Source of the DNA: an uncultured virus (IMG/VR IMGVR_UViG_3300021579_000006)
Lineage: Duplodnaviria > Heunggongvirae > Uroviricota > Caudoviricetes
Length of the DNA stretch: 64,000 nt
Virus record (IMG/VR): IMGVR_UViG_3300021579_000006
Direction: 5' to 3' (one strand)
Below the pieces are notes generated by a model. The model was not told the DNA's origin and did not search any database. It saw nothing but the letters and a program-made list of their open reading frames with translations. Position numbers and translations under genes: made by a program. Positions 1 through 45,194 of this stretch are shown here, in pieces. The stretch's first letter is position 1. The number at the start of each line of letters is the position of its first letter.

Positions 1-48
1 AACACAACAACAAACCCTATCCGCCTACTCCTCTTCAGCGATAACTCA

Positions 49-78
49 ATCCTACCACCCCCTTCCATCAAAAGTCAA
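49..78 (-). promoter_or_regulatory. sigma-A-like promoter TTGACT-18-TAGGAT
   Basis: agtcaa at 73-78 and atccta at 49-54; drives a gene left of the window. Confidence 0.6.
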
Positions 79-160
79 ATCAACAACACCCCGTGTTGGA
101 TCCGCGTATTTATTTTTTCTCCACGCAAAAAAAAAAAAAAAAAAAAAAAAAGAAAAAAGA

Positions 161-210
161 AACCCCCTCTACGCTGGACGGGAATCCATTTTATTGCGTA
201 GAAGGGGTTT
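161..210 (-). terminator. Intrinsic terminator
   Basis: Long inverted repeat aacccc-tctacgc...gcgtaga-aggggtt, followed on the minus strand by a very long T tract (A run 127-151). Confidence 0.7.
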
Positions 211-284
211 CTCCCATCCATCACTATCACTAGCCCAGAAAGTGGGGGCTAGAGCCTTTTAGCCACATGCTCGGGTGGTTGTTG

Positions 285-518
285 CTAATAGCCTACATGC
301 TGGTTCTCTGGCATGTCAAGTGTTTCGTTCAGCCACTCCAATGCTTTCTGGCGACCCTTGACTCCCTTGCCAAAGGTTGCGTAGGTGTCAATGCCAGTTA
401 GACGCTCCAGGGTTTTCATAGCTGGTTCGCGAGTCATTTGCATCTTGCTTCCACGGCTCATCGAGTTGATTTCCAACTCAAGGCTTATGACAATCAACTT
501 TGCCTGAATGATGTTCAT
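285..518 (-). CDS. Hypothetical early protein (77 aa)
   Basis: ORF with GAGGGACAGAAA RBS and its own promoter. Confidence 0.8.
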   Translation of the reverse strand: MNIIQAKLIVISLELEINSMSRGSKMQMTREPAMKTLERLTGIDTYATFGKGVKGRQKALEWLNETLDMPENQHVGY

Positions 519-566
519 TTTCTGTCCCTCGTAGTCCTCCGCTATCTGCTTCCTGACTACCTTTGT

Positions 567-595
567 AGTCTATCAGGGTTTCTCCTAAAAGTCAA
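567..595 (-). promoter_or_regulatory. sigma-A-like promoter TTGACT-17-TAGACT
   Basis: Near-consensus -35/-10 with 17-bp spacer. Confidence 0.85.
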
Positions 596-706
596 GTTCA
601 TAGCCATTTCGGGTGTGTCAGATTCCACGACCAAGAAAAAATAAATACGCTCTTGAAACAAGCAAAAAATAACGCCCATCTTCCGATGAGCGTCATTCTT
701 TGAAAG

Positions 707-853
707 TTAGACTTGGCTTCTTAGAATCCGTGTGAACCAAGCATCAAAGTCTGCTTGGCAAACTTCGCACAAAGGGTGAACCTGTCCGACCTCTGCTTCA
801 ATCGATTCTTCGCATTGATAGCACTCTGTCTTTTCGAGTTTGATTACAGACAT
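707..853 (-). CDS. Small CxxC...CxxC zinc-ribbon protein (48 aa, not in ORF track)
   Basis: MSVIKLEKTECYQCEESIEAEVGQVHPLCEVCQADFDAWFTRILRSQV; TAATG coupling with the upstream gene. Confidence 0.7.
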   Translation of the reverse strand: MSVIKLEKTECYQCEESIEAEVGQVHPLCEVCQADFDAWFTRILRSQV

Positions 854-1197
854 TACTCCTCCTCTTCGTCTTCAAAGTAATCCTCTTCGTCTTCATACTC
901 ATCCTCGTCTCCCTCTCCCTGAGCGATTAGAGTCTCGAAACCAGCATTTGGGTCTTCATGGTTAGTTGATACAGCATCTACAAACCGCAGTCCGCACGAC
1001 TCTTCAAACCACTTTTTGACAGTTGCCAACATCTCGCTTGGCGACATCTCGTCGGATGTGATTAGTGGGTCATACTTATACTCACGCATGAGGGCTACCT
1101 GCTCGTCATCCATAAGAACATAAATCTTGTGGCAAGTGTCCCAAGCGATGGCTTTGGCATCTTCGATGCGACCCTCTACCAAATCAAAATCAATCAT
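853..1197 (-). CDS. Hypothetical acidic-tailed protein
   Basis: Start re-called to MIDFD (1197) behind GAGGGACAAA; Asp/Glu-rich C-terminus. Confidence 0.8.
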   Translation of the reverse strand: MIDFDLVEGRIEDAKAIAWDTCHKIYVLMDDEQVALMREYKYDPLITSDEMSPSEMLATVKKWFEESCGLRFVDAVSTNHEDPNAGFETLIAQGEGDEDEYEDEEDYFEDEEEE

Positions 1198-1249
1198 TTT
1201 GTCCCTCGCAGTCATGAACCCTACCTGAGTTCCTTTCGACTACACGAGT

Positions 1250-1278
1250 AGTCTATCCTACTTATCCTCTAATGTCAA
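1250..1278 (-). promoter_or_regulatory. sigma-A-like promoter TTGACA-17-TAGACT
   Basis: Consensus -35 with 17-bp spacer. Confidence 0.85.
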
Positions 1279-1341
1279 ATCAAATACAAGTCGCCGTGTG
1301 TCGCACGGTGTCTAGAGAAAAAATAAATACGCCTCGGCAAC

Positions 1342-1375
1342 AAAGAAAAAGAAAGCCCCACCGAAGTGGGGTTTC
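1342..1375 (-). terminator. Intrinsic terminator (UUCG loop)
   Basis: gaaaccccac-TTCG-gtggggctttc plus T tract on the minus strand. Confidence 0.85.
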
Positions 1376-1386
1376 CTGCGAAGTTT

Positions 1387-1680
1387 CTACAAACCTAGAC
1401 GCTTCACAGCGTCAATAAAACGCTGAAGTTTCGCAATCTCTCGGCTGTAGATGTCCAGCATCTCTGGGTGGTCTGCGAATAAAACCATCTTGTTCTCACG
1501 AATATCCTTGATGTGGGCTTCCAGAGTCCACACAATCTCAAAGAAGTCCCCACGCTCTACGCCCTGAAGTGCTACGGCAACCTCGTAGTTGCCCTGCTCC
1601 TCAGAAGCATAGGCAAAACCCTCAACGAAGATACCTTGCTCTACCTGCTCGTAAACGCTACGAACCTTGACCTTGCTCAT
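1387..1680 (-). CDS. Hypothetical protein
   Basis: ORF with GAGGGACAAA RBS, promoter and terminator. Confidence 0.8.
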   Translation of the reverse strand: MSKVKVRSVYEQVEQGIFVEGFAYASEEQGNYEVAVALQGVERGDFFEIVWTLEAHIKDIRENKMVLFADHPEMLDIYSREIAKLQRFIDAVKRLGL

Positions 1681-1730
1681 TTTGTCCCTCTGTAATCCTC
1701 CAGCGACCTGCTGTCCTGATTACATAAATA

Positions 1731-1759
1731 ATCATACCAACTAATCAGATAAAAGTCAA
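1731..1759 (-). promoter_or_regulatory. sigma-A-like promoter TTGACT-17-TATGAT
   Basis: Near-consensus elements. Confidence 0.8.
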
Positions 1760-1877
1760 ATCCATTTCAGCTCGCCGTGTCGATCCTTCCTCGTCAGAGA
1801 AAAAATAAATACGCCCTCGCCCGACCAGCAAAAAGAAAAACCCCAACCCTTTCGGGCTGGGGCTTCTCCTGTCCTCG

Positions 1878-2180
1878 CTACTTGCGGAAGATGTTTACAA
1901 TCACCGAGAAACGAGTTACCTTACGAGTTACTTCGTAGGCTTCTGGGAACTTCTCGGCAAGCATCTTCTCGTCTGTGCCTTTACGCTCTCGCCAGTCACG
2001 ACGAGCGATGTCGATGTTGCGGTGAACCAAGATGTCCGAGTCACCGAACGCAGCGTCAATCTCCTCGGCAAGTGCCGACTTGATTTTCTCAAGGCGAGCA
2101 ATCTCTGCCTTGACATTGGCGAACTCACCAATCTTCGCAACCATTTCCATAGTTGCCTTTACACGAATGTCGTTTGACAT
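1878..2180 (-). CDS. Hypothetical protein
   Basis: ORF with GAGGGACAAA RBS; short coiled coil; terminator at about 1830-1865. Confidence 0.8.
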   Translation of the reverse strand: MSNDIRVKATMEMVAKIGEFANVKAEIARLEKIKSALAEEIDAAFGDSDILVHRNIDIARRDWRERKGTDEKMLAEKFPEAYEVTRKVTRFSVIVNIFRK

Positions 2181-2231
2181 TTTGTCCCTCGTTGTAGCCC
2201 TCGATGTATCTCATCTCTTGACTACTAAAGT

Positions 2232-2261
2232 AGTCTATACCCTACATACGACATTTGTCAA
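2232..2261 (-). promoter_or_regulatory. sigma-A-like promoter TTGACA-18-TAGACT
   Basis: Consensus -35. Confidence 0.8.
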
Positions 2262-2374
2262 ATCCAGCTGACATTCGGGCGTGTCGGCACGGCATTCTGA
2301 GAAAAAATAAATACGCCAACTCACCCGCCAAACAAAAAAACCGCCACCCGAAGGTGACGGCTTTCGTTTGAAGT

Positions 2375-2773
2375 TTACTCTTGCTCCGTGTCCTGAGCCT
2401 TGCTGAAGGTGAACAACGCACCATACTCATCGTGGCTTGAACGCACGCAAGTCAAGTCCTTGCCATTCAACTCATAACGCAGGGTGAAGTCCCCATTCAA
2501 AGTTAGGCAGTCAATAGCCTCGCTTGCACGAATGTTTGTCCAGCCAGCAACCTTATTCCAATTCATGTTTCCGCTGAACACATAGACGATAGTATCCTCA
2601 TCCCAACCATTAGCCTCTAGCCATGGCTTGAGAATCTCATACTTGAAGTTATCACGCTCGTCATCAAAGCAACCATAGCAGTAGTCGCTAGGCGATGAAG
2701 TGTCCGTGTCCTCGTCATAAATCTCGCAAGTGCAGTCTGAAGTAATCTCAAACTTTACAACTGTCTTTTCCAT
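2375..2773 (-). CDS. Hypothetical protein with CxC/CxxC motifs
   Basis: ORF with GAGGGACAAA RBS; promoter TTGCTA-17-TATAAT at 2815-2843. Confidence 0.8.
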   Translation of the reverse strand: MEKTVVKFEITSDCTCEIYDEDTDTSSPSDYCYGCFDDERDNFKYEILKPWLEANGWDEDTIVYVFSGNMNWNKVAGWTNIRASEAIDCLTLNGDFTLRYELNGKDLTCVRSSHDEYGALFTFSKAQDTEQE

Positions 2774-2966
2774 TTTGTCCCTCTATCTAGTGGCTGTCCT
2801 TATCCACTAATTCGATTATACGCTAACTTCCAACAAATAGCAACTCTATCGCTCATTCGAAGTTGCGGCCGGCCGGAGCTGGAAGAAAAAATAAATACCA
2901 TCGAGGCAACAACGAACAAAGAAAAACCCCGAGCCTCTCTCAACTCAGGGTTTCGCTTTTTGCTTT

Positions 2967-3179
2967 TTACTTTTCTACTTTTCGCAAGTCTAATCCTAGT
3001 TTACGAATATCGCTACGAATACGGTGTAGCGCACGCACATCGCTAGGTGTGCTTGAGGTGAAAAAGAAATCACCATTCGGGGCAGTAAACCTGTAGTGGC
3101 AACTCTTTGTCTTATCAACTGTCCAGCCACAGGAAACGACTGCCTTGATAATCTTGTCTAACTCTTTCCTGTTTCCCAT
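2967..3179 (-). CDS. HicA-like (dsRBD-fold) small protein
   Basis: GW-x(6)-SCHYRF...STPSD pattern typical of phage HicA-like proteins; start re-called to MGNRK. Confidence 0.6.
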   Translation of the reverse strand: MGNRKELDKIIKAVVSCGWTVDKTKSCHYRFTAPNGDFFFTSSTPSDVRALHRIRSDIRKLGLDLRKVEK

Positions 3180-3362
3180 TTGTTGTCCTTTCATCTGGGT
3201 ATCTTGATACTAGCACCAACCTCTGACATTTTACAAAGACACGCACAAAAGAAAAACGACGTAGGTGACAAACCTACGCCGTGTTTCCCCTGAGCGGGAC
3301 AAGTGCTCAGTATTATGGGCAGGGAGTCACGCTCAACCTGCCCACAATCCTTGGTGAACTTG

Positions 3363-3704
3363 CTAAACTTTTACCTTAGCAAACTCTGTGTGAACTACGC
3401 CCTCTAAGGTGTATTCGCCTGTATCGGCATCCACGATTATTGTTGGATTGTCCATCCACAAATCCTCGCTGGCTGAATACTCCGAGGTTTCAATACCAAA
3501 AGACAACTCACCATCGTAGTTGCCTAGTTTCGCAAACTCATAAAAAATCTGCGCAGTCAAGTAACTAACATCGCCAATGCGACCAGTGCGACGCAAAACA
3601 TTACGCACGGCAGTCACATTGTCTTCACCTGACCAGTGTCCATAGAAAGTAATCGGTGTTGGAAAGGCCTTTGCCTTTACAACAATCAAACTACGGTCTC
3701 CCAT
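3363..3704 (-). CDS. Hypothetical protein (MGDR...YGHWSG type)
   Basis: Start re-called to MGDRS behind AGGGACAG; promoter TTGACT-17-TATAGT at 3750-3778. Confidence 0.8.
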   Translation of the reverse strand: MGDRSLIVVKAKAFPTPITFYGHWSGEDNVTAVRNVLRRTGRIGDVSYLTAQIFYEFAKLGNYDGELSFGIETSEYSASEDLWMDNPTIIVDADTGEYTLEGVVHTEFAKVKV

Positions 3705-3973
3705 TTCATCTGTCCCTCTGTCAACTACTTCACTTCGCTGACATAAATAACTATACGCTATGCCATTCATAAAGTCAACTTCATACAAACCTAAACATTC
3801 ATTCAAAGTCCAAATACGCATTTTCTAATCTCCAGAGAAAAAATAAATACGCCCTAAATCCAGACAAAGAAAAACCCCCGAATCGGAATCTCTGTTCCAG
3901 ATTATTCGGGGGAAGTCTTACTTGGTGTCTTGTCCTTGGGGGCAAGGGCAGTTTCTCACCTTACACTCATAAC

Positions 3974-4207
3974 TCACGACCAACACGCTCCACACTTCGG
4001 GATAGTAAATCCACGACCTAGCAACTTGTTCATTTCCCGTGTATCGTGGTCTTTCTGGTTCAACCACATCTCTGCTTCGCACGAACGACATTCGTAGCGA
4101 TAGCGTGGCTCTCCATCTTTGAAGTAGTTTGGGATTACCTGACGTAACCCAATCTGCTCCAGTTCCTCGTTGGTTGCGTCTGGATACTCTCTTGCTAGAC
4201 GGCTCAT
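3974..4207 (-). CDS. Zinc-ribbon protein
   Basis: CRSC...CGAC; ATGA overlap with the upstream gene. Confidence 0.7.
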   Translation of the reverse strand: MSRLAREYPDATNEELEQIGLRQVIPNYFKDGEPRYRYECRSCEAEMWLNQKDHDTREMNKLLGRGFTIPKCGACWS

Positions 4208-4422
4208 AGCCCACTCGCCTCACGCTCTGCCTTGATTGCGGATAGCACTTCGATAAGTTCATCAAGTGCCTCGTAGCGAATGTTGTATGAGTTGAAAATG
4301 CTGTTGTCAAAAGACGAACGCTCATAGACTGAAATGTCATAATCACTTGGTTCGATTTCAATGTAATCGGTATCTGGCATAACAATCTTGTAGGTAATCG
4401 CCTTGGTAACTTCGATAGTCAT
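4204..4422 (-). CDS. Hypothetical protein
   Basis: AAAGGACA RBS; promoter TTGCAA-18-TAAAGT at 4451-4480. Confidence 0.75.
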   Translation of the reverse strand: MTIEVTKAITYKIVMPDTDYIEIEPSDYDISVYERSSFDNSIFNSYNIRYEALDELIEVLSAIKAEREASGL

Positions 4423-4588
4423 TCTGTGTCCTTTCTTTGACTACTCTCTTACTTTACACTCACCCTCTGACATTTTGCAAGTCCACTAGCCCCGTGTCGC
4501 CCTCACGCAGAAAAAATAAATACGCCAAAGCCAGAGAGCAAAAAAAGAAACCCCCCTGCTTTCCTAAGGCAAGGGGGTTTCGCTCCTT

Positions 4589-4759
4589 TTAGTTTTTGGT
4601 GAAGAAATCCTCTAAGGCTTCATCTACGCCACACGCTGAACAAATCTCTGTTTTGCTGTCACGACGAGAAATCGCTCCTGGGTATTCTCCTGCGTGTTCG
4701 TTACTTGGAATGAAGTTTGAACACTTCGGGCATTTCTTTGCTTCTGTCTTGAGTTCCAT
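4589..4759 (-). CDS. Small zinc-finger protein (56 aa, not in ORF track)
   Basis: MELKTEAKKCPKC...GAISRRDSKTEICSACGVDEA...; AAGGGACAGAA RBS. Confidence 0.75.
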   Translation of the reverse strand: MELKTEAKKCPKCSNFIPSNEHAGEYPGAISRRDSKTEICSACGVDEALEDFFTKN

Positions 4760-4799
4760 TTCTGTCCCTTTCTATGGATAAGACTATTGTAACCTATGA

Positions 4800-5081
4800 C
4801 TACGATAAAGTCAAGTCGTCTGCGAACATAGCCTCAACTGTGTCTGGGATAGAGAGTTGAGCCATACGAAATCCTGCTTCGATTACGAGCAAGTGGGTTG
4901 GCACATTCAGCGAACGAGCAATCTGAACAACAATCTCTGACGAGGCTTCCTTGTGTCCGTGTTCAAGTTCACTTAGGTATCCGAGAGCAACATTAGCGTC
5001 AGACGCAACCTTGCGTAGAGTCTTTTGCTGGCTGTGTCGCATTTCACGCATAACCTCACCTAGAGCGTGGCGGTATAGCAT
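4800..5081 (-). CDS. XRE-family HTH regulator, ClgR-like
   Basis: LGEVMR...KTLRKVASDANVALGYLSELEHGHKEASSE closely matches the actinobacterial ClgR signature. Confidence 0.8.
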   Translation of the reverse strand: MLYRHALGEVMREMRHSQQKTLRKVASDANVALGYLSELEHGHKEASSEIVVQIARSLNVPTHLLVIEAGFRMAQLSIPDTVEAMFADDLTLS

Positions 5082-5465
5082 TTATTCTCCCTCTACTGAC
5101 ATCTGATACAAGTGTATCGCTCGGTCTACGGCTTCGTCAAGTTCGTGCCAAATCTCGCCTTCAAGGTATTCCTGCTTGGTGTCGTCCCAAATCTCAAACC
5201 ACGAGTTGTTACGCCAGCAAAAGACTTCCTCGCCCTTGTCTGTGTATTCAGCCAACTTCTCGTCGGTGTCAATACCAAGTTCCTCGAGGTCTGCTGTCGT
5301 GCGTAGGTAGTGTTCCTCGCCCTCTGGGTCGGTGTAGACAATCAACATCTCGCCAACACGCTCCACATAAAAACGCTCGTTGCCGTCCCACACGCTCATT
5401 GGGTCTTGGTCGCTGTGGTAGAACGCACTCTCTTGGCGCAAACTGTTGTCTGGCTTTGTAAACAT
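5082..5465 (-). CDS. Hypothetical acidic protein
   Basis: AAAGGGACAG RBS; promoter TTGTAT-17-TAAGAT at 5494-5522. Confidence 0.8.
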   Translation of the reverse strand: MFTKPDNSLRQESAFYHSDQDPMSVWDGNERFYVERVGEMLIVYTDPEGEEHYLRTTADLEELGIDTDEKLAEYTDKGEEVFCWRNNSWFEIWDDTKQEYLEGEIWHELDEAVDRAIHLYQMSVEGE

Positions 5466-5712
5466 CTCTGTCCCTTTCGTTGATGTTGATTTTATCTTAC
5501 GCTAACTTCCAACGAAATACAAGTTCATTCGTGGAAAGTCTTATCTTCAAGAAAAAATAAATACACCAAAAAATCCGAGCAAAGAAAAACACCTAGACGG
5601 GGGAGGTCTAGGTGTCTTTTCATCTGGGAGTCCAAGGGGGAAAGGACTTCACCAGAAATCTATTCAGTTGTGAGAAAATCCTATCACGGGATTTGTATCC
5701 GTGTCAAGTTTT

Positions 5713-5967
5713 CTAATCGGCGAGTTCTGCGTCAATCTCGTCTAGAGTTCCTAGCGAGTAGTTGTCGCAGTAGTGGCACTCATACTTCTCGCCCGTTGGT
5801 TGTGGGTGGTTGTTCTTGGCAAACCAAGCCGCCCATTCACTTCGCTCATACTCGCCAACCGAGTCTACATAGTCGATGAAGTGCTCGTCTAGGTCTGTAG
5901 CATCTACCACAACCAAGCCGTCTGCTCCACCCCAGTTGCCGTCTTCGGCGAAATAGAAGTCCGTCAT
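5713..5967 (-). CDS. Hypothetical protein
   Basis: ORF with tandem GGACA upstream. Confidence 0.7.
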   Translation of the reverse strand: MTDFYFAEDGNWGGADGLVVVDATDLDEHFIDYVDSVGEYERSEWAAWFAKNNHPQPTGEKYECHYCDNYSLGTLDEIDAELAD

Positions 5968-6016
5968 TTCTTGTCCAATCTGTCCTTGTGTTCTTACTCT
6001 ACACTATGCGAGCCGT

Positions 6017-6922
6017 TTACGCAAGTTCCTCGGATAACGGATACAGACGCTCGCCAGTTTCGCCGTCCTTGACGAAAGCCGTGTCCTCATCCTCTAGGGT
6101 GATACCGTCAGCAATCGGGGTCGGTGCGTTTACAATCTCGGTGTCAATCTTACCCCACGCCTCCTCCGCACTCTTGGCAGTCACCGTATAGGTGCGAGTA
6201 ACTACAACGGCAAACTCACGAACCTTGTTCGGGCAGTCGTCATAGTAGTCGTCCACATCATCTGAATACGAGCAGACGCAACTGTCCTCACGGTCACGGT
6301 TCACATAGTCAGCGTGGCAGTCAGGAATGTCCCATTCCTCCGTGAGAATGAGAGTGTGCTCCTCGCCCTCAGACGAAGTAAACTTAGCACCCCAGCCCTG
6401 CTCCTCCTCACACTCAAAGTCGAAACTCAACTCTGGGTGTTGGGCGACCATTGCTACGAACACAGGCTCTGGGATAGACCACGCAGTTTCAAACGAGTAT
6501 GAGGTAGACGCATTGCCCTTGCCATCAGCGATAATCTCGCCACCATCTACACTGCTTGCGTCCCACTTAGTTCCCCACTCACGAACATTCCAGTCATACC
6601 AACCATTGCCAGTAAACTTCAGGTCGTGTGCCATCTTGTCCTCGGTAGACCAGCCCTCGTATCCCTCTGGCTTTTTTCCGTGTGCGTCAGCGAAGTAGGC
6701 TTCCTTGTCCTCTGGCTCAATGAAGTTCCAGAACATCAACTTGTCCTCGTTCACCTGCTCGTATTCCACATCAGCGTCATACTTCCACTCCTTAGTTACA
6801 GGGTCATTGTAGCCCTTGCCTTTGTGCTTGGAAGTGTATGGCTTCTTTGCCTTCTCAACAAACGCAGTGATGTCTGCCTCTGTTCCTGAAACTCCTACCC
6901 AGTTTGATACCCAGTTCGGCAT
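6017..6922 (-). CDS. DUF1281/YubB ferredoxin-like-domain protein
   Basis: MPNWV start, WYDWNVREWGTKWDA and FETAWS motifs; promoter TTGACA-17-TATGTT at 6965-6993. Confidence 0.75.
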   Translation of the reverse strand: MPNWVSNWVGVSGTEADITAFVEKAKKPYTSKHKGKGYNDPVTKEWKYDADVEYEQVNEDKLMFWNFIEPEDKEAYFADAHGKKPEGYEGWSTEDKMAHDLKFTGNGWYDWNVREWGTKWDASSVDGGEIIADGKGNASTSYSFETAWSIPEPVFVAMVAQHPELSFDFECEEEQGWGAKFTSSEGEEHTLILTEEWDIPDCHADYVNRDREDSCVCSYSDDVDDYYDDCPNKVREFAVVVTRTYTVTAKSAEEAWGKIDTEIVNAPTPIADGITLEDEDTAFVKDGETGERLYPLSEELA

Positions 6923-7163
6923 CTAAATCACCAGTCCTTTTCTTTGTCCCTTGGTGTTAGTTCAAACATACCCTATTCGTTGGAAGTTGTCAAGTTCATT
7001 TGAAAATCAGTGTGTCGTCCAGAGAAAAAATAAATACGGCAGTGGTCAAAAAATACCCTCCCGGCACTAGCTAGTGGATAACTTCCAACAAACAAAGGGG
7101 AGGTTCATAGGTTCTAGGGATCGTGAGAAAGTGCGCTCCAGTGGCAACCGTTGAATAGCGAAA

Positions 7164-7195
7164 CCCCCTAACAGGGGGACAGACCTGTCAGGGGG
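7164..7195 (-). terminator. Terminator hairpin with UCUGUCCC loop
   Basis: 12-bp stem (G-U pair only on the minus strand) followed by TTTC. Confidence 0.65.
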
Positions 7196-7290
7196 CTTCT
7201 TGTTCACCGTTGGGAGTTAGAGACGGGGACAGACCGTCAATCTCAACCGCTGGCGAACCTCTAACACCACGCCGTTAGCGTGGCAAGCCG

Positions 7291-9099
7291 TTAGGCAACC
7301 GAGGCTTTGGCTAGTGCTTCAACCGCACCACGCCCGACCTCCTCGGCAATCTGGTTTTCGTCCAAGCCGTCAAGGACTACGCCGTATCCGCCAAGCAAGG
7401 TCTTTCCCATTCCTCGCCCACAAGACTTTGGCGTAATCCAGATAATGCCCACGCCGTTTTCTTTACACAAGCGAACCGCCTCTTTCGTGCGCTCGGTTTC
7501 GTTGCTCGTGTAATGTCCGTCCGACACAATCACAAGCAAGCGAACGCCGTCACCGTAAGTCAAGCCGAGAGTGCCGTCCACTGCTTCAAACGCCTCGCCA
7601 AACTTTTCCGTGCCGTCAGGCGCAGACCAGACCGAAACCTGCTCCAACTTCTGACCGACCTTTAGGGTAGGGAACACGCCAGAGCCGTAGTAGACCATAG
7701 CGGTCTTGGCTTGGACACGGCGACCTGCTTCGGACATAACCCAAGCGGTAGTTGCCAGTGCCTCCATAGCGCCAGACATAGAGCCACTGATGTCCACCAT
7801 AATCCCCATTCGGAGAGTAGGGTCGTCAGTGTGCTTGCGAACCTTGTGCGTCCACGCTGGGTTCTTGGTCACTACGCCCTTGGCTTCTAGCGCCTTGTTC
7901 TGAATGAGAGTGCGAGTGTTCAAGCGACCCTTTGGTTCTACGCTCTTACGCTCGTGAACAGAGCGCTCACGATACTTTGCCTTTTCCAACATCTGACCAA
8001 TCTTGACAGCGCTTGCTCGTTCAGAGCCAGTAGGGTTGCGCTTGTTGATTAGGGTCGAACGAGAGCCACTTTCACCTGCGCCAGAGGCGTTGCTGAAAAC
8101 CTTGGTAGCAGTTTTCTTGCTCTCGCTTTGGCGCTTTGCCTCGCTATTGCGAACCTTGGTTGCCTCTTGCCATTCCTCTGTTGTCTGCTGGTCAGCAAGG
8201 TCAGAGGCAGTAGAGGTTGAAGTGTTGCTTGCGTCCTCTGCCAAAGCGTCAAGCAAGTCTGCCAGAGCCTCTGACATTCCAGAGCCACCCTCGCCCTCGC
8301 CCTCGCCACCCTCGCCAGCCATAGCCATAGCCATTTCGCCAGCCTCACCCTCTGGGTCTGCCTCTTTCAAAAGGTCATTCCACTTTTGAGCAAGCGCCTC
8401 GCCACGAGCAACTTCGCTAGTTGCGAGTGACTGAAACTCAACCCAGATTGCTCGTAGTTTGTTGAACAGGTCTTGACCAATCACGCTCACAACCTGCTTG
8501 TAAGTTGCGTCCACATCTGACAACTTGACAACGCCAGCGTCTACACGAGCCAGAGCCAGTAGCGATACACGAGCGCAAGCACGAATGTCAGATAGGTTTT
8601 CGATTGCCTCGCTGGTCAAGTCCTCTAGCGAAAGTCCAATCGCACTTGCTCGTAGGAACAACTGATTGTTAGGCATAGCAACTACGCCCTTGCGCTCAAT
8701 GCGACTTTCGTCTAGCAACTGAAAGGTCTGGTGAACCATAGGGTTCATAGCCTCTAGCGCCTTACCATTCCACTCTGAATACTTGGCGTGAAGTGCCTCG
8801 TGGTAGATAACGCCAATCGCCTCTGCGTGGTCAAACTGATTGACACGCTGGGTCAGGTCGCCAACCATAGCAGGAGTAGTGGCAGAGCCAAACGCCTTGT
8901 CCAAGTTGATTTCGACCTCGGAGGTCTTTACATAAAAAGCGGCGATTGCCTGTCCGTCTACTGCGTCCTTACCTGCGTATACAGCAAGGTCGTTTCGACC
9001 AGACCACGAGTTCACGAGGTGTCCAATCTCGGAACAAGTCTTTAGCCACTCACTAGGAGTTTCGCTCTTGCGTTGCGCAAGTCTTGAATAGTGACCCAT
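7291..9099 (-). CDS. vWA-domain (CobT-like) protein with HExxH region
   Basis: MIDAS DISGSM, VSDG, N-terminal YHEALH and DESRIE; adjacent to an AAA+ ATPase. Confidence 0.85.
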   Translation of the reverse strand: MGHYSRLAQRKSETPSEWLKTCSEIGHLVNSWSGRNDLAVYAGKDAVDGQAIAAFYVKTSEVEINLDKAFGSATTPAMVGDLTQRVNQFDHAEAIGVIYHEALHAKYSEWNGKALEAMNPMVHQTFQLLDESRIERKGVVAMPNNQLFLRASAIGLSLEDLTSEAIENLSDIRACARVSLLALARVDAGVVKLSDVDATYKQVVSVIGQDLFNKLRAIWVEFQSLATSEVARGEALAQKWNDLLKEADPEGEAGEMAMAMAGEGGEGEGEGGSGMSEALADLLDALAEDASNTSTSTASDLADQQTTEEWQEATKVRNSEAKRQSESKKTATKVFSNASGAGESGSRSTLINKRNPTGSERASAVKIGQMLEKAKYRERSVHERKSVEPKGRLNTRTLIQNKALEAKGVVTKNPAWTHKVRKHTDDPTLRMGIMVDISGSMSGAMEALATTAWVMSEAGRRVQAKTAMVYYGSGVFPTLKVGQKLEQVSVWSAPDGTEKFGEAFEAVDGTLGLTYGDGVRLLVIVSDGHYTSNETERTKEAVRLCKENGVGIIWITPKSCGRGMGKTLLGGYGVVLDGLDENQIAEEVGRGAVEALAKASVA

Positions 9100-9231
9100 T
9101 TTTTTTCTGTCCTTTCAATGGGGTTGTTTTTCTGTCCTAAAGAAACAATAGCATAGGTTGTTGGAGAGCGCAAGTTCATTTAGAAAAAAGTTTCTTGCGC
9201 CCTCCACCTATCTAGGTTCGGACAGGTGAAC

Positions 9232-10245
9232 CTAAATCTTGGCTGGGCGGACTTCCTCACCAAAGACACGAGTGAACACATCTGCCACGATTGGGCGGTC
9301 AATCTCTGGGCTTGAAGCAAGCAAGTTTTGGACTGCCCACTTTGAACCAAAGACCTTGCTCAAGTCACGGAACGCTAGGAGTTCACGCATTTGAGGCGAC
9401 CACGAAACTTCACCATTCATCTGCTTCTTGGCAAGGTTCTGGCTTGCGCTCACTGCTGTTACAGGAACACCCAACTTCTTGGCAAGACCCCAGTCAGTAG
9501 TCATTTCGACCTGAATGGTGAAGCGAGAAAGTAGAGCCTCTGAAAGACGAACCCCCGGTGCGTTTGGGTTGGTCGCACCAATCACGAAAAAGCCGTCCTT
9601 AGCCTTGACAGTTCCTCGCTCTGGGTTCTGGGTGATTGTGATTTCCTTGCGTCCGTCCATAAGACCATAGACTGCCGAAAGAATCTTTGGGTCAATCAGA
9701 CCAATCTCGTCAATCAGGAGGACTTTGCCCTCCTCGGCAGACTTGACCAAAGCGCCGTCAATCCACTCAAAGCCACCTGACGGAGTTTGGACATAGCCAC
9801 CAATGAAGTCGGCAAGTTCAGTGTCACCCGAACCAATGACGGTGTAAAGTTCCTCTGGGAACGCACCCTCTACACAGGCGGTCTTTCCAGTTCCAGGAGC
9901 GCCATAGAGCATTACATACTGACCAGCGCCTCGTGCTTTGCGCAAGACTTCAATGTCAGTGTGTTCACCCCAAGGGCGAGCGTAGTAGTCGTGTCCATTT
10001 GGACGAGCATACTTTTCAGCACCTGCTAGTGCCTCCACATTTACCACCTTGTTAGTCTTTGGCTTGGTTGCGCCAGTTCCCATTTTAGCACGGAGGTTTG
10101 CCTTAGCGCTTTCAGGTAGTAGGTCTTTCAGCGCTGGGATTACTGCGCTAGGGTCTTTCGACTGAATAGCAATACTGTAAATCAGTGACGATAGTTCTGG
10201 GTAGAGGGCATTTACCTCTGGGGTTTCAACTGCGAGAGTAGTCAT
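9232..10245 (-). CDS. MoxR/CbbQ/CobS-like AAA+ ATPase
   Basis: Walker A GAPGTGKT, Walker B LLIDE, GATNP and ALLSRF. Confidence 0.9.
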   Translation of the reverse strand: MTTLAVETPEVNALYPELSSLIYSIAIQSKDPSAVIPALKDLLPESAKANLRAKMGTGATKPKTNKVVNVEALAGAEKYARPNGHDYYARPWGEHTDIEVLRKARGAGQYVMLYGAPGTGKTACVEGAFPEELYTVIGSGDTELADFIGGYVQTPSGGFEWIDGALVKSAEEGKVLLIDEIGLIDPKILSAVYGLMDGRKEITITQNPERGTVKAKDGFFVIGATNPNAPGVRLSEALLSRFTIQVEMTTDWGLAKKLGVPVTAVSASQNLAKKQMNGEVSWSPQMRELLAFRDLSKVFGSKWAVQNLLASSPEIDRPIVADVFTRVFGEEVRPAKI

Positions 10246-10277
10246 TTTTCCTGTCCTTTTCTTTTGACTAAATCTAA

Positions 10278-10799
10278 CTATACCAGTTTTTCAGGGAATG
10301 TCAAGGCGACACGAGCCTTGTTGATACGGCGTAGTGCCGAGGCTGGTGCTTTCCAATCAAGAATGTCAGTGAAGTCCACATCAGTAAGTTCAAAGACGAT
10401 TGGCTTGTTACGGAGGTTGGTCAGACCATACATCATCTGACGCTTCAAGATACGCTCAACCTGCTCTGCGAAATCAGTGGCAGTAGAGGTGGGAGTAGTG
10501 AGAGCGACCTCCTCTGGGGTCTTGGCGTTTGGGCGAATGAATGAGGTGCGCCACTGCGCACGAGGCGACCAAGTGGCAACAGTGCGAGAGATAACGCCCA
10601 TAGGCACATCATCACCCTTTTCAGTCTTACCCTCTGGGGTAATCAAAATCTGGGTGGTTTGAGTTCCAGCCTCGTTTGGAAGTTCTAGGTAGATACCCAT
10701 TCCCATTAGGCGTGGGTTGTTTGAGGCTTCAACAGTCGCTACTGCGCCAGCAACCTCTGGGTCAAGAGTTCCAAAACTGCTTAGGGTTTCAGGGTTCAT
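10278..10799 (-). CDS. Hypothetical protein
   Basis: ORF with tandem AAGGACA; promoter TTGACA-17-TAATGT at 10848-10876. Confidence 0.75.
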   Translation of the reverse strand: MNPETLSSFGTLDPEVAGAVATVEASNNPRLMGMGIYLELPNEAGTQTTQILITPEGKTEKGDDVPMGVISRTVATWSPRAQWRTSFIRPNAKTPEEVALTTPTSTATDFAEQVERILKRQMMYGLTNLRNKPIVFELTDVDFTDILDWKAPASALRRINKARVALTFPEKLV

Positions 10800-10920
10800 T
10801 TGTTTCTGTCCTTGTCTTTTGTCCTTGTTGGTTTTCCAACATCTCCAACATTACGCTAACTTCTAACGAATGTCAAATCTATTTATGAAGTTTTTTATAA
10901 CGAAACTATAACAGGGTTTT

Positions 10921-11454
10921 TTAGAAGTGGAAGTCCACAGGGATTAGCCACTGCTTGTCTGGGTTGGTCTTGACACGCTCAATGAATGAGTTCAAGTTCG
11001 CTGACCAAGTAGTGAGGTCATAGATAGCAGTGTCGCAAGTCCAGTCGTCATTTAGAAGTTCTGCCAACTTCTTGGTTGAATACAGGTTCGTGTCCCAGCC
11101 AGACTTGTATGGGTCGTACTTGTATGAGGCTAGGTCAACAGCTTTTGCCTGATACGAACGAATGTCATTGAAGCGCTGGTCTAGGTAGGAAGTAATAGCA
11201 CGCTCTGCCAGTGCTGGGTCTTCCGAGTAGCGTAGGAAGTTCGGAGCCTCATCTGCGTTGTATACGCCATTCTTGTCTGGGGTTCCGAACACAGTTCCTG
11301 TCCAACGATCTGCGAAGTTCTTGGCGTCAACATTCGAGAAGTTGGCATTGTGCCAGTCGCTCCAACTAGGGTTCTCCTCCAGTGCGCTGGCAACTTGCTC
11401 AAACGCCTCCTCGGCGTTATCTGCTTCAATGAGCATAATCTGGCAAACGTGCAT
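10921..11454 (-). CDS. Hypothetical protein (C-terminal VDFHF)
   Basis: Start re-called to MHVCQ behind AAAGGACAGAAA; promoter TTGCAA-17-TATAGT at 11486-11514. Confidence 0.8.
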   Translation of the reverse strand: MHVCQIMLIEADNAEEAFEQVASALEENPSWSDWHNANFSNVDAKNFADRWTGTVFGTPDKNGVYNADEAPNFLRYSEDPALAERAITSYLDQRFNDIRSYQAKAVDLASYKYDPYKSGWDTNLYSTKKLAELLNDDWTCDTAIYDLTTWSANLNSFIERVKTNPDKQWLIPVDFHF

Positions 11455-11591
11455 TTTCTGTCCTTTCGTGTTTGCTCTTGGCTCCACTATACACCAATTC
11501 GTTAGAAGTTGCAAGGCGCTCGCGGTATCAAAGAAAAAATAAATACAACTTAGGACAAAGAAAAAAGCCAGCATTTCTGCTGGCTCTCTCT

Positions 11592-12155
11592 CTACAGGGT
11601 CACATTCAACTCTGTGATTGGTAGATAACACTTCGTGCATTTCTCTAACTCGACCCAAGTCTTAGTTGTGTAGTCGAAATGCTTACCTAAAACAAACTCG
11701 TGGTCTTTGTTGATTAGGTGCATAACACGCTCGTGACGACTACTACCGTGCCAACGAACAACTGCCCACATCATATCTGTCCAGTCAGAGGTGTCCAGCA
11801 TTGTAAGTTCAGAGGCGTCACCAATATTACCGTTAGTGTCAATGTAAGTCTGCTTACGCTCAATCTTGGTGGCTGGTAGTGCTAGGTAGTCCACGCCTGA
11901 GAATCCTGCGTAATATCGCGACTTGCTCTTGAACTCTTTGTAAAGACGGTCAACCTTACGAACCGCTAGAGTTTGGGTGTTGTGCATACTGGCCACATTC
12001 ACTACAATCTCGCCGTCGTCCTTGGTCAACACTTCAAGCACACACGCCGTCTTATTGTAGTCATTGTTGTCCGCAATGACCTCGTTCTTGCCGATTGCTT
12101 TCAGTAGTCCCTCTGGGACATCAACCTTGTAGTTGAAAAATTCATAGTTCTTCAT
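11592..12155 (-). CDS. Hypothetical protein, probably leaderless
   Basis: Promoter TTGACA-17-TATAGT at 12163-12191 places the start site at ATG 12155 (MKNYEFF). Confidence 0.7.
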   Translation of the reverse strand: MKNYEFFNYKVDVPEGLLKAIGKNEVIADNNDYNKTACVLEVLTKDDGEIVVNVASMHNTQTLAVRKVDRLYKEFKSKSRYYAGFSGVDYLALPATKIERKQTYIDTNGNIGDASELTMLDTSDWTDMMWAVVRWHGSSRHERVMHLINKDHEFVLGKHFDYTTKTWVELEKCTKCYLPITELNVTL

Positions 12156-12207
12156 ACCTGCAACTATAGCAAGATAGTCCGCTAATGTCAAGCAGGCCGT
12201 GTCGTAT

Positions 12208-12489
12208 CTAGAATTCTTCCAGGTCCTCATCGGTATCAAAGCTTAGAACTTCGTTGGAAGATGATGGATCCGTCACATCCTCGATGCATGTCGTGCACAT
12301 CAGCCATCGATCTTCGTGATCAAGAACTACCGCAAACGGAAAGTATGCAGAGACAGCTACCCCTACGTTCTCAGAGCACGCCGTACATGCTAGCTCAGCA
12401 TATAGGTCTTCAGTTTCTAGCAGGCCCGCGGTAACAGCTTTATCCATATCCGAGCCGTGTTCCATTACGTGTAGTTCAATTGATCTCAT
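12208..12489 (-). CDS. Zinc-binding hypothetical protein
   Basis: CTAC...CTTC; -10 TATGCT just upstream of ATG 12489. Confidence 0.6.
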   Translation of the reverse strand: MRSIELHVMEHGSDMDKAVTAGLLETEDLYAELACTACSENVGVAVSAYFPFAVVLDHEDRWLMCTTCIEDVTDPSSSNEVLSFDTDEDLEEF

Positions 12490-12524
12490 ACGGGTTAGCA
12501 TACCCGTGTTTTTAGATAGTGAGT

Positions 12525-12719
12525 TTAATACTCCCAAACACTATCCTGGCCAGTGTATCCGTCAGCCTCTAGTTCGTAGTCGAACTCCTTCTCCATCTCT
12601 GGAGTCAGGCCGTCCGTTAAAAGTTGGTACCCGAGCTGAAGGGCCTCACCAGCTGTTTCAGCTTCGATGACCAGGCTATGGGTTACCCGCTCATCAATCT
12701 TTACAACATACTGAGTCAT
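12525..12719 (-). CDS. Hypothetical protein
   Basis: ORF with ATGA coupling. Confidence 0.7.
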   Translation of the reverse strand: MTQYVVKIDERVTHSLVIEAETAGEALQLGYQLLTDGLTPEMEKEFDYELEADGYTGQDSVWEY

Positions 12720-13036
12720 GCGATTGCTCCCAGTCGATTCTGGAGGCGGGCCGAGTAATGGAAGAACCCGCGGTTGATTGGGTAGTCGGGGAAGTCATTT
12801 GGAGTAAGCACGCCGCCGATACGATTCTCGAGGCACCCAATGCACAGCATCACATCCGTGCCGCAGTGGTTATCGTTTGCAGCGTAGATGGTAGCGGACT
12901 TCCAAAGTTCATTGTCAACCATGTAGTACTCGTTGATGTCCATGGTATTAATGTTGCAGTCCCAGCAATTGAACGCGGTGTAGCAACTAGCGTCCTTGCA
13001 TCCGTCTTGGCAGATGCAGTCTTCATGAATTGTCAT
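12716..13036 (-). CDS. Cys-rich hypothetical protein
   Basis: CWDC...EYYMV...LCIGCLENRIG, a common actinophage pattern. Confidence 0.75.
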   Translation of the reverse strand: MTIHEDCICQDGCKDASCYTAFNCWDCNINTMDINEYYMVDNELWKSATIYAANDNHCGTDVMLCIGCLENRIGGVLTPNDFPDYPINRGFFHYSARLQNRLGAIA

Positions 13037-13077
13037 GAGTTAACTGTACCAGGTGCACGCCTTAAATGCAAGCCGTG

Positions 13078-13308
13078 TTAGAAAGCTTTCTCGAACTCCT
13101 GGCCATCAGGGCCTTTAACCGTAATGATTCGTCGGAAGTTTGAACCGGTCGGTAGGTCCGCAGCACGCACGAACTTCGTATGAAAGATTCGTCCGAACTC
13201 TTCCTGGATGACTCGATGAGCTTCTTCCTTCGAAGGTGCAGCAAACGTAGCAATGGCAGGCCGCGTCGCATTCGACGGGTGCGTTAGTTCGAAGGTATAG
13301 ATCTGCAT
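13078..13308 (-). CDS. Hypothetical protein
   Basis: ORF in operon orientation. Confidence 0.6.
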   Translation of the reverse strand: MQIYTFELTHPSNATRPAIATFAAPSKEEAHRVIQEEFGRIFHTKFVRAADLPTGSNFRRIITVKGPDGQEFEKAF

Positions 13309-13343
13309 CCGTTAATTCTAGCATGTCCTGGATTCGTCAGAAG

Positions 13344-14856: not shown

Positions 14857-14892
14857 GATCCGATCTTAGCACATAGTGCTCATCAGATGTTG

Positions 14893-15108
14893 TTAGCTGC
14901 GGCGGGCCGCACGCTTTGAACGAATGCGGGCCCAGACTCTCTCGTGAGCAAAGAATGTGATCGACTCCCAGATGAGCTCGGCTGATGCAATCATTGCTGC
15001 AAAGTCAAACCGATGGGTAATAACCAAAGCAATCAGGCCGGCCATCAAGAAATGAAGGACGTGCCAAGAGATGGTCTTTACCAGGCTGAGCTTAATTGAA
15101 TCACTCAT
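14893..15108 (-). CDS. DUF2061-like small membrane protein
   Basis: SLVKTISW...FFAHERVW. Confidence 0.7.
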   Translation of the reverse strand: MSDSIKLSLVKTISWHVLHFLMAGLIALVITHRFDFAAMIASAELIWESITFFAHERVWARIRSKRAARRS

Positions 15109-15286
15109 GTGATGTGGTTCCTTCCTGGAGATCCGTTTCGATCTCATCGAGTAATGCTACCAGGTTCTCTGCTTCTTGCGCAAGAGCTGTCAACCTTACG
15201 TGCTCGAGTCTGGTTGATGCATTGTTGATATCCGCTTTGAGGTTCTCGTAGAGAGACCGGGCCGCTTGGTTGATTTCATTAGTCAT
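15101..15286 (-). CDS. Hypothetical protein
   Basis: Short helical ORF coupled to its neighbours. Confidence 0.6.
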   Translation of the reverse strand: MTNEINQAARSLYENLKADINNASTRLEHVRLTALAQEAENLVALLDEIETDLQEGTTSHE

Positions 15287-41071: not shown

Positions 41072-41072
41072 G

Positions 41073-45192: not shown

Positions 45193-45194
45193 AG

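Follow-up and report, generated by a model that had tools for sequence, protein, structure and literature searches.

Anti-ribosome-binding-site hairpins at the 3' ends of two neighbouring early messages of an uncultured phage and their co-variation in relatives

The early region of an uncultured phage encodes two neighbouring messages, for a MoxR-type AAA-ATPase and for a vWA protein, with hairpins at their 3' ends whose loops complement the ribosome-binding site (RBS) of early genes. In this study we propose, with a probability of about 0.55, that these 3' untranslated region (UTR) loops pair with the RBS of the same message and limit initiation on the two messages, in the manner of icaR of Staphylococcus aureus. 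The hairpins H1, H2 and H3 would represent, in this phage, an element conserved across the family, with one copy over the ATPase stop codon and two in the vWA 3' UTR. Each element would be a stable 3'-end hairpin with an open loop complementing the RBS of its message, and loop and 5' RBS would pair within one mRNA molecule.

The DNA analysed (the window) is a stretch of 64 kb from a record of 66.65 kb which is about 45% complete. Its source is a freshwater (lake) phage, probably of actinobacteria. Megablast of positions 6000-11500 gave no match to GenBank phages. Among the 33 proteins encoded in 1-19.5 kb, 19 are without any family match at E <= 0.01 and none matched an RNA-binding family. Comparison of positions 1-20000 with the Rfam 15 covariance models returned only two hits at E <= 1, both at chance level. 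The early region is organised as early-gene cassettes, each separately promoted, and the GGACA element described below tags the cassettes. Promoter-like sites precede the ATPase gene, and from the genes to H1-H3 there is no intervening terminator-like site. In total 21 terminator-like sites were found, including ordinary early terminators with GNRA- or UUCG-type loops; H1, H2 and H3 are absent from this set and do not have the form of an intrinsic terminator, a GC-rich stem followed by a U tract. Parts of the window are contained in six metatranscriptome runs from six studies. The four runs examined consist of contigs, which cannot show transcript ends, strand, level or stable fragments, and cover the vWA 3' UTR thinly. 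One contig of 1241 nt covers 9100-10339, that is the ATPase gene and H1, contigs of this kind not showing single transcripts.

A motif of the form (G/A)A(G/A)GGACA stands 2-8 nt before the ATG of 15 early genes on the minus strand. Its GGACA is located, the higher coordinate being the 5' G, at 523-527 (gene 518-285, GAGGGACAGAAAATG), 1200-1204 (gene 1197-853, GAGGGACAAAATG), 1683-1687 (gene 1680-1387), 2183-2187 (gene 2180-1878), 2776-2780 (gene 2773-2375), 3184-3188 (gene 3179-2967), 3711-3715 (gene 3704-3363), 4427-4431 (gene 4422-4204), 4763-4767 (gene 4759-4589), 5469-5473 (gene 5465-5082) and 11459-11463 (gene 11454-10921, where ACGAAAGGACAGAAAATG is the family-wide form). Two copies precede gene 5967-5713 (5972-5985, 5' G of the motif at 5976) and gene 10799-10278 (10807-10824, 5' G at 10811). 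The vWA leader (9100-9137) holds AGGACAGA twice, at 9137-9131 and 9112-9106, the second being the RBS of the vWA gene 9099-7291 with its 5' G at 9112. Upstream of the ATPase gene 10245-9232, a promoter-like TTGACA-16-TATAGT and a leader occupy 10246-10304, with the RBS AAGGACAGG and the 5' G at 10256. A sixteenth early gene, 6922-6017, has an atypical leader (6932-6949, minus strand) with GGGACA 24 nt upstream of the start, followed by AAGGACT. The preliminary description had reported about 16 early genes with this motif, often with an extra upstream copy, which agrees with the 15 genes at 2-8 nt plus the one at 24 nt. All five places named for extra copies were found as well (1712-1716 before gene 1680-1387, 2795-2799 before gene 2773-2375, and 5981-5985, 9133-9137 and 10820-10824); in these five leaders the two GGACA copies are 9-25 nt apart, and the copy at 2795-2799 lies in the loop of a 7-bp hairpin.

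Concerning the frequency of the motif, the pattern GGACAN{2,8}ATG occurs 23 times in the window versus 11.8 +/- 3.5 times in shuffled sequence, and none of 100 shuffles reached 23. Of these matches, 20 lie within 516-12072 on the minus strand. Bare GGACA is not enriched in the window (107 copies versus 106.4 expected), with 61 of the 107 copies lying within 1-12300 and 52 of these on the minus strand. GGACA is the top 5-mer upstream of candidate starts in 1-12300 (12 of 28 ORFs). It is not among the top upstream words of the later genes in 20000-64000, where GGAGA (15 of 79 ORFs) and AGGAG (12 of 79) lead and the sites are of the GGAG type. The leaders of the early genes share only roughly 10 nt, the motif itself, and differ in their flanks.

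GGACA may be understood as a lineage-private 3' extension of a purine-rich Shine-Dalgarno (SD)-like element, (G/A)A(G/A)GGA, which could pair with the UCCUUUC 3' tail of 16S rRNA. What follows GGA is lineage-specific: CA dominates in the window (11 of 14), and among related lineages (numbered with the prefix L) the dominant extension is CG in L015, L041, L043 and L060, AA in L044 and L063, TA in L034 and GA in L023. A published parallel to such a word is the start-associated sequence (SAS) of Cluster K mycobacteriophages, an asymmetric short repeat that, in many non-structural genes, stands 3-7 bp ahead of the ATG (Pope et al. 2011, PMC3203893). It is described there as having a single orientation, an SD core together with conserved positions unable to pair with 16S rRNA, and no known function; on the ESAS inverted repeats the authors concluded that these do not form RNA hairpins. 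Like SAS, GGACA is an oriented short repeat close to the ATG, present at 15 genes at 2-8 nt and on the minus strand only. Unlike SAS, it is shorter and varies by lineage, and hairpins in two 3' UTRs offer it a complementary partner, something not reported for SAS. The SAS 13-mer consensus 5'-GGGATAGGAGCCC has no match in the window at up to 2 mismatches.

All three hairpins are read on the minus strand. H1 (9210-9237) lies over the ATPase stop codon, the TAG at 9234-9232 being inside its 5' arm. Its arms, 9237-9228 and 9219-9210, form with pair probabilities of 0.97-0.99 and enclose the loop ACCUGUCC (9227-9220), which complements the GGACAGG of the ATPase RBS (CCUGUCC versus GGACAGG). In the vWA 3' UTR, the 5-bp hairpin H2 (7222-7238; arms 7238-7234 and 7226-7222, pair probabilities 0.87-0.89) presents the loop UCUGUCC at 7233-7227, and H3 (7160-7199), with 12-16 bp and a pair probability of 1.0, presents the loop UCUGUCCC at 7183-7176. 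UCUGUCC, in H3 as in H2, complements GGACAGA of the vWA leader. H3 contains one G-U pair, which, as the preliminary description had stated, forms only in the minus-strand reading; this is seen directly in the sequence. The loop-RBS duplexes of the window are short, 7-8 nt, with energies of about -11 to -14 kcal/mol. A shuffle test proposed in the preliminary description bore out the enrichment of UGUCC in such loops. The word occurs in 3 of the 18 minimum-free-energy hairpin loops of 13 early 3' UTRs, and among 400 dinucleotide shuffles the count was 0 in 371 and 1 in 29. The 7-mer CCTGTCC has a single copy and TCTGTCC two copies on the transcribed strand of the entire 64 kb, all three inside the loops of H1-H3. 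Only the ATPase and vWA messages bear such anti-RBS hairpins.

Four hairpins had originally been flagged. H1, H2 and H3 proved stable and above chance, but the fourth, H4, did not. H4 is a 6-bp inverted repeat around ACUUGUCCC (3296-3304, within 3290-3310 on the minus strand) of doubtful membership, with a pair probability of 0.01 in its 3' UTR context, where the fold is not favoured. The sole close homologue with a 3' UTR in hand (L060) has a C-rich loop instead, and the remaining homologues run directly into the next gene. The C-rich, anti-SD-like loops noted earlier are present (5605-5599, 5643-5634 and one near 17220) but are without support as part of the element. One of them belongs to the hairpin 5647-5630 (AGUCCUUUCC), which matches the unusual AAAGGACU leader of gene 6922 over 8 nt, a tie with GAAAGGAC of the early genes g1, g4, g10 and g13 as read from their leaders. 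The table of 3' UTRs against RBSs for this hairpin also gives matches of 8 for g3 and 9 for g5, both through the terminator U tract. Because terminator U tracts on A-rich leaders confounded this first matrix, single hairpins were judged instead. Among 26 distinct homologue loci of gene 6922 no consistent anti-RBS hairpin was seen, and the hairpin 5647-5630 was treated as generic. H4 and the C-rich loops probably lie outside the element.

Strong evidence for pairing comes from relatives, for which 43 distinct phage lineages were compared for vWA and 41 for the ATPase. The preliminary description had suggested looking for conservation in related phages, and for both genes the loops do co-vary with the RBS of their own gene across these 43 related lineages. 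The relatives' start codons were set by rule, so that some RBS windows may be wrong. For vWA, the longest Watson-Crick match of the RBS window with the 110-nt 3' region of the same gene is 8.70 nt on average over the 43 lineages, versus 6.07 nt when the two come from different genomes. By match length as by duplex energy, 0 of 20,000 permutations were as high. The window's own vWA match of 7 nt ranks 1.5 of 43 and its own duplex energy 28 of 43. For the ATPase the own match averages 6.54 nt versus 4.99 nt (0 of 20,000 permutations), and the ATPase loop of the window matches its own RBS, GGACAGG, best of the 41. When about 10.8 kb was scanned for the stretch with the longest complementarity to the vWA 3' region, this stretch ended 0-7 nt ahead of the vWA ATG at 21 of 57 unique loci, and in 8 of those 21 it was the sole top match. 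Changes occur on both sides, with RBS and loop reading GGACG and CGUCC, GGAAC and GUUCC, or AGAAAGGG and CCCUUUCU; in L018 and L019 the loop complements CACCCAATGT at the ATPase start.

The structural setting is kept as well. Of the 28 lineages whose match reaches at least 8 nt, 27 have the anti-RBS stretch 60% or more unpaired within the apical loop on a long stem. At the ATPase stop codon, 22 of 41 lineages have the start of a hairpin with arms of 7 bp or more, versus 249 of 2580 random places. In a MAFFT alignment of the H1 hairpins the loops are in register and the inner stems are not, and pairs were therefore counted from the stem ends; positions 5 and 6 of H1-type stems each show five pair types, in a set selected for having a stem, for which the comparison with random places is the unbiased control. 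RNA-RNA pairing between loop and RBS on these messages is strongly supported by the co-variation in relatives.

Which RBS is the partner has to be asked across the family, since the H2/H3 loop UCUGUCCC of the window matches GGGACAGA over 8 nt in four sibling genes and the vWA RBS over 7 nt, so that the window's loops cannot separate own from sibling RBS. When the vWA loop was compared with all RBSs of its genome, its own ranked strictly first in 17 of 43 lineages and shared first place in 10, with a mean normalised rank of 0.17 that none of 20,000 null draws equalled or undercut. L034 is a natural experiment favouring own-message pairing. Here the ATPase gene is separated from the vWA gene by 8 nt that hold no hairpin, and the hairpin after vWA contains a 14-nt complement to the ATPase RBS, the first RBS of the transcript. 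Across the family, the partner favoured by these comparisons would be the RBS of the hairpin's own message and not those of its siblings. The translational circuit suggested in the preliminary description is upheld in that loop-RBS pairing co-varies in 43 lineages, but its choice of sibling partners is the less favoured one.

Such a circuit acting in trans, in which the 3' hairpins, possibly released as stable fragments by processing, would serve as small RNAs that pair with sibling RBSs and jointly shut down early translation, appears unlikely, yet it has real points in its favour. It would account for the private extension kept at every early gene, and own-message pairing on two messages does not explain why CA is kept by the other 13-14 early genes. 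Each lineage has a dominant extension after GGA which the loops track, and with only the motif of about 10 nt common to the leaders, selection would seem to act on the word itself. The better fit of H2/H3 to the four siblings by one nt and the ties between sibling and own RBS in 10 of 43 lineages, and in the 10.8-kb scan in L026, L030 and L090, point the same way. However, where the own RBS is written in the common dialect, a match to siblings comes automatically. Against a trans circuit also stand the 17 lineages given above with the own RBS as strictly the best partner, and the reach of the matches into flanks peculiar to one gene (lengths of 15, 13, 13 and 11 nt, each unique within about 10.8 kb); a global repressor would have no use for this.

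What own-message pairing would do is suggested by icaR, in which the 3'-UTR motif UCCCCUG base-pairs with the SD region of its own mRNA, so that formation of the initiation complex is blocked and a substrate for RNase III arises, as described by Ruiz de los Mozos et al. 2013 (PMC3868564). The phage elements resemble icaR in that a pyrimidine-rich 3' UTR motif complements the SD region of its own message, and a block of initiation may be expected by analogy. They differ in belonging to a phage and to two neighbouring messages known from sequence, in placing the motif in the open loop of a strong hairpin, with the H1 stem spanning the stop codon, and in matching a lineage-private SD extension with co-variation over 43 lineages. 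Few cases of end-to-end pairing of bacterial mRNAs were found in the literature (icaR, hbs), and we found no paper describing 3' loop-RBS pairing for a phage. On the analogy with icaR, the pairing probably represses rather than stabilises. A positive or protective effect, by shielding the message from ribonucleases or from early-mRNA shut-off or by bringing the start site near terminating ribosomes for re-initiation, is distinctly unlikely. Its precedent is the hbs mRNA of Bacillus subtilis, where a 5'/3'-UTR interaction is reported to govern ribonuclease access (PMC5737220). As in hbs, the two ends of one mRNA would pair here, but unlike hbs the paired part would be the RBS itself. Moreover, the stop codon lies in or directly beside the ATPase hairpin in 22 of 41 lineages as well as in the window, and a terminating ribosome must therefore melt this hairpin, which would suit re-initiation. 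Yet the paired stretch is the SD itself, in some relatives also the start codon, and a block of the 30S subunit is to be expected. We regard as rather unlikely, too, the wider notion that the anti-RBS hairpins matched to each lineage-private RBS dialect would go beyond restraining their own messages, either serving as a phage-encoded RNA switch for silencing all early genes or closing the message into a loop, with the stem on the stop codon, so that terminating ribosomes free the start site and re-initiate.

Explanations other than pairing between RNAs fare less well. GGACA could be the site of a phage or host RNA-binding protein or nuclease, CsrA-like or RegB-like, that turns early messages off, the hairpins being decoys or unrelated. 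The leaders with two GGACA copies, one of them in a hairpin loop, resemble CsrA-type paired sites, and early and late genes differ in their upstream word. In phage T4, the GGAG word of early messages is the handle for switch-off by the nuclease RegB (PMC1702504); the likeness lies in a short SD-like word on early phage messages, but the complementary partner here is an RNA, and RegB (PF10715) has no match at E <= 1 in the record, itself about 45% complete. CsrA (PF02599) likewise has none at E <= 1 in the 66.65 kb. The loops carry UCC or UGUCC and not GGA, the complement rather than the motif, and could not serve as decoys for a GGACA-binding protein; the CsrA-like decoy alternative raised earlier loses its footing here, and the reading as a whole is very unlikely. 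On duplex DNA, RBS word and loop word are one site in opposite orientations, and the inverted repeats flanking genes could be sites of a DNA-binding regulator or recombination seams. An HTH protein is encoded at 5081-4800, and the early region consists of swappable cassettes with a further conserved word, GTATTTATTTTTTCT, in 11 copies. Against such a DNA-level role, which we consider highly improbable, the complement always lies in a hairpin loop, the stems change by compensation, H3 requires its G-U pair, and the motif is strictly oriented at 2-8 nt from the ATG. Chance, i.e. accidental complementarity of short C/U-rich loops to a purine-rich RBS, may explain part of the first observations, namely H4 with its unfavoured fold and the hairpin after genes 6922-5713, which ties with five RBSs in a gene family without a conserved counterpart. 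For H1-H3 it is rejected by the shuffle test, the uniqueness of the 7-mers and the family-wide co-variation, and as a general account it is hardly credible.

Own-message pairing of 3' loop and RBS thus remains the preferred reading. Comparative data alone yield a clear co-variation signal for end-to-end pairing on two phage messages: the ribosome-binding word of the early genes drifts by lineage, and the partner loop follows. Two questions become testable hereby. One is why words associated with start codons persist beyond what pairing with 16S rRNA requires, a question going back to the report on the Cluster K SAS (PMC3203893). The other is whether phages meter the translation of host-takeover genes through their 3' UTRs.

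The window corresponds, in reverse complement, to a 66.65-kb virus record whose completeness CheckV estimates at about 45%. The phage encodes a ribonucleotide reductase, PhoH, tail fibre proteins and endolysins, and ten tRNA genes and a tmRNA gene (tag ANSRSAFALAA) are located at 40995-45994. The closest GenBank phage to its vWA protein is the metagenome-assembled Actinomycetia phage DSL-LC01 (44% identity), followed by Microbacterium and Gordonia phages. Since these nearest matches are actinobacterial phages and the metatranscriptome runs containing the sequence carry a freshwater label, the host is probably a freshwater actinobacterium. About 20 small minus-strand genes lie within positions 1 to ~12,300, most of them with their own sigma-70-like promoter and intrinsic terminator. 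A 15-mer, GTATTTATTTTTTCT, occurs 11 times in the window (0.01 expected): ten minus-strand copies from 634 to 11546 are placed between a cassette terminator and the next promoter, and one inverted copy on the plus strand (106-120) at the left end adjoins a long T run. Near 130-165 the window has some 30 T in a row, and the genome record G000 ends there in a shorter and different way; an assembly end or an artefact of terminal repeats may account for this.

Fifteen genes carry GGACA 2-8 nt upstream of the ATG opening their ORF; the gene starting at 6922 has GGGACA farther upstream, then AAGGACU. GGACAN{2,8}ATG was matched 23 times as compared to 11.8 +/- 3.5 in shuffles, and 20 of the 23 matches are on the minus strand within 516-12072. 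The early-gene start motif noticed in the preliminary description is thus real and non-random. Bare GGACA shows no enrichment across the window (107 copies, 106.4 expected); the first 12.3 kb holds 61 of them, including 52 on the minus strand. Upstream of candidate starts in 1-12300 GGACA is the top 5-mer (12/28 ORFs), whereas beyond 20 kb GGAGA (15/79 ORFs) and AGGAG (12/79 ORFs) take the lead. Given this clustering and the different words of the later region, GGACA marks the early cassettes. The leaders have only about 10 bases in common and their flanks differ, which speaks for selection on the start word itself and against entire leaders having been copied recently. The 3' tail of 16S rRNA reads CCUCCUUUCU-3'; (G/A)A(G/A)GGA can pair with UCCUUU(C) at this end and, as had been claimed, the CA following GGA is unable to pair with the tail.

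Relatives were sampled through loci encoding homologues of the vWA protein (38-66% identity), first 14 and then 80. Among the initial 14, each locus has 5-22 genes with ACGAAAGGACA-N3-8-ATG on the coding strand, compared with 0-2 on the opposite strand. Among 688 RGGA-N3-10-ATG sites from 43 non-redundant lineages, the two bases following GGA vary between lineages: CA dominates in the window (11/14), L021, L026, L054 and L093, CG in the closest relatives of the window (L015, L060) and in L041 and L043, AA in L044 and L063, TA in L034 and GA in L023. Because these bases differ by lineage, CA is a private dialect and no universal signal. Leaders of vWA genes (window 9133-9137; L021, L030, L040, L076) often contain two or three copies of the private ribosome-binding site (RBS) word, and the first copy is near where the message is predicted to begin. 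In the window this leader holds two copies, and there are likewise two matching 3' loops.

Four hairpins had been proposed to expose the complement of the start word in their loops, and three of them proved real and non-random. H1 (minus strand, 9237-9210), behind the MoxR-type AAA-ATPase gene (10245-9232), has a stem of 7-10 bp holding the ATPase stop codon, the loop ACCUGUCC and a pair probability of 0.97-0.99. Two further minus-strand hairpins follow the vWA gene (9099-7291): H2 (7238-7222), with a 5-bp stem, the loop UCUGUCC and a pair probability of 0.87-0.89, and H3 (7199-7160), with a 12-16 bp stem including one G-U pair, the loop UCUGUCCC and a pair probability of 1.0. The fourth, H4 (3310-3290), is present as a 6-bp inverted repeat; within its 3' UTR the loop pairs elsewhere, which leaves the hairpin a pair probability of only 0.01. 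None of H1, H2 and H3 is among the predicted terminator-like sites; loops of ordinary early terminators are GAAA, UUCG, GGAA or similar. UGUCC is found in 3 of 18 MFE hairpin loops from 13 early 3' UTRs and never in more than one loop in 400 dinucleotide shuffles, confirming the suspected enrichment. Over all 64 kb, the transcribed strand has a single CCTGTCC and two copies of TCTGTCC, all of them within the loops of H1-H3.

The C-rich loops reported at 5643-5634 and 5605-5599 exist as well, with a promoter-like site (5707-5678) before them and a terminator at the end. This minus-strand stretch, 5707-5580, comprises TTGACA-18-TAGGAT with TG, then about 90 nt with the loops UUUCCCCCUU and CUCCCCC, and the terminator. 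It is a candidate small RNA or, alternatively, the 3' UTR of the gene at 5967-5713; an Rfam match to the stretch was absent. A long minus-strand hairpin at ~17195-17243 precedes the gene that starts at 17119. Within its loop, AAGUCCUCUCCCCGGU, AAGUCCU is complementary to AGGACUU in the RBS of that gene; metatranscriptome contigs from two runs (X1, X4) both stop at 17233, within this hairpin. Parts of the sequence are contained in six metatranscriptome runs from six studies, four of which were aligned as contigs. One contig of 1241 nt spans 9100-10339, covering the ATPase gene, H1 and the spacer to the vWA ATG; it documents presence in RNA libraries, not a transcript with ends or strand, and DNA carry-over is possible.

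Conservation in related phages, suggested as a check, was evident from the way the loops follow the RBS across lineages. For 43 lineages the vWA RBS (-25 to -1) was compared with its own 110-nt 3' region by the longest Watson-Crick match. The own match averaged 8.70 nt versus 6.07 nt in cross-genome pairs, and mean duplex energy -17.5 versus -13.7 kcal/mol; on either measure the observed value was reached in 0 of 20,000 permutations. RBS and loop change together, ACGAAAGGACGAA with UUCGUCCUUUCGU, UUUUAGAAAGGG with CCCUUUCUAAAA, GAAAGGAACGGAA with UUCCGUUCCUUUC and ACAAGAAAGGU with ACCUUUCUUGU. In 21 of 57 unique loci, a scan of about 10.8 kb placed the end of the longest complement to the vWA 3' region 0-7 nt upstream of the vWA ATG. 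ATPase genes of 41 lineages gave a mean own match of 6.54 nt versus 4.99 nt (0/20,000 permutations), with matched pairs that include GGACUAA/UUAGUCC, GGACGAA/UUCGUCC, GGACGGA/UCCGUCC and GAACGGAA/UUCCGUUC, and GGACAGG/CCUGUCC in the window. H1 of the window fits its own RBS better than all 40 other ATPase RBSs; the window's vWA 3' region ranks 1.5/43 by match length and only 28/43 by energy. Of the 28 lineages whose vWA match reaches 8 nt or more, 27 present the anti-RBS stretch in the apical loop of a long stem, with at least 60% of it unpaired in the MFE fold. In 22/41 lineages a hairpin whose arms are at least 7 bp long starts within a few bases of the ATPase stop codon, as compared to 249/2580 random places. 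A set of 19 hairpins in which the 5' arm begins one base ahead of the stop codon has five pair types at each of the inner stem positions, which stay paired; as the set was selected for having a stem, the variety of pair types is informative and the pairing is not. In L012 and L040, ~60-330 nt past the vWA stop, the anti-RBS hairpin is followed by an array of repeat units (caggctcgtcg ... agacgggc), which could be iterons or protein-binding repeats.

The preliminary description had the loops shutting off sibling early genes. Their pairing with RBSs is strongly supported by the co-variation; the partner favoured across the family is the loop's own message. Within genomes, the own RBS is strictly the best partner of the vWA loop in 17/43 lineages and tied best in 10/43, with a mean normalised rank of 0.17 (0.5 expected; 0/20,000 null draws reached 0.17). 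In L034, where the ATPase and vWA genes are 8 nt apart without an intervening hairpin, the one that follows vWA shows 14 nt of complementarity to the ATPase RBS, which comes first on the joint message, and only 5 nt to that of vWA. L018 (3890-3935) and L019 have a second hairpin between both genes, and 10 nt of its loop complement CACCCAATGT, which comprises the ATPase spacer and start codon. These observations favour a model in which the two ends of one message would pair, occluding the initiation region. In other relatives, similar YAUUGGGUG or GUAGGUKGG loops match the starts of the ATPase gene or of the gene preceding it. In the window itself, H1 matches its own RBS over 7 nt and others over 6 nt, whereas H2 and H3 match GGGACAGA of four sibling genes over 8 nt and the two AGGACAGA copies in the vWA leader over 7 nt, which keeps sibling shut-off alive as a minority reading for this phage. 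A comparable conserved hairpin was not found behind homologues of the next gene, and the element is therefore restricted to ATPase and vWA messages.

Two other explanations, protein and DNA ALTERNATIVES, invoke a GGACA-binding protein with the hairpins as decoys, or a purely DNA-level feature. Contrary to the CsrA-like protein proposed earlier, the loops carry the complement of GGACA and cannot be decoys for such a protein. Neither CsrA nor RegB was matched in the incomplete 66.65-kb record, and no RNA-binding family was recognisable among the 33 proteins of 1-19.5 kb; these absences argue weakly against a protein, given the missing part of the genome and the many encoded proteins without a family. 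A DNA-level feature leaves the hairpin context, the compensatory stems and the G-U pair unexplained. Self-pairing of messages, for its part, leaves unexplained why all early genes retain the private CA.

In the literature searched, with most subscription journals outside its coverage, no paper on phage 3'-UTR anti-RBS hairpins was found. The proposed pairing resembles the icaR 5'-3' UTR interaction (PMC3868564) and recalls that of the hbs 5'/3'-UTRs (PMC5737220). As for the start motif, it is similar to the start-associated sequences known from Cluster K mycobacteriophages, to which no function has been assigned (PMC3203893); their consensus was not found in the window. T4 RegB inactivates early phage mRNAs by cutting GGAG, and a short SD-like word can thus serve as a handle to switch off early messages (PMC1702504). 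In the best-supported reading, to which we assign a probability of roughly 0.55, the 3' loops of the ATPase and vWA messages would pair with their own 5' RBS, and this self-directed pairing would probably repress both messages.
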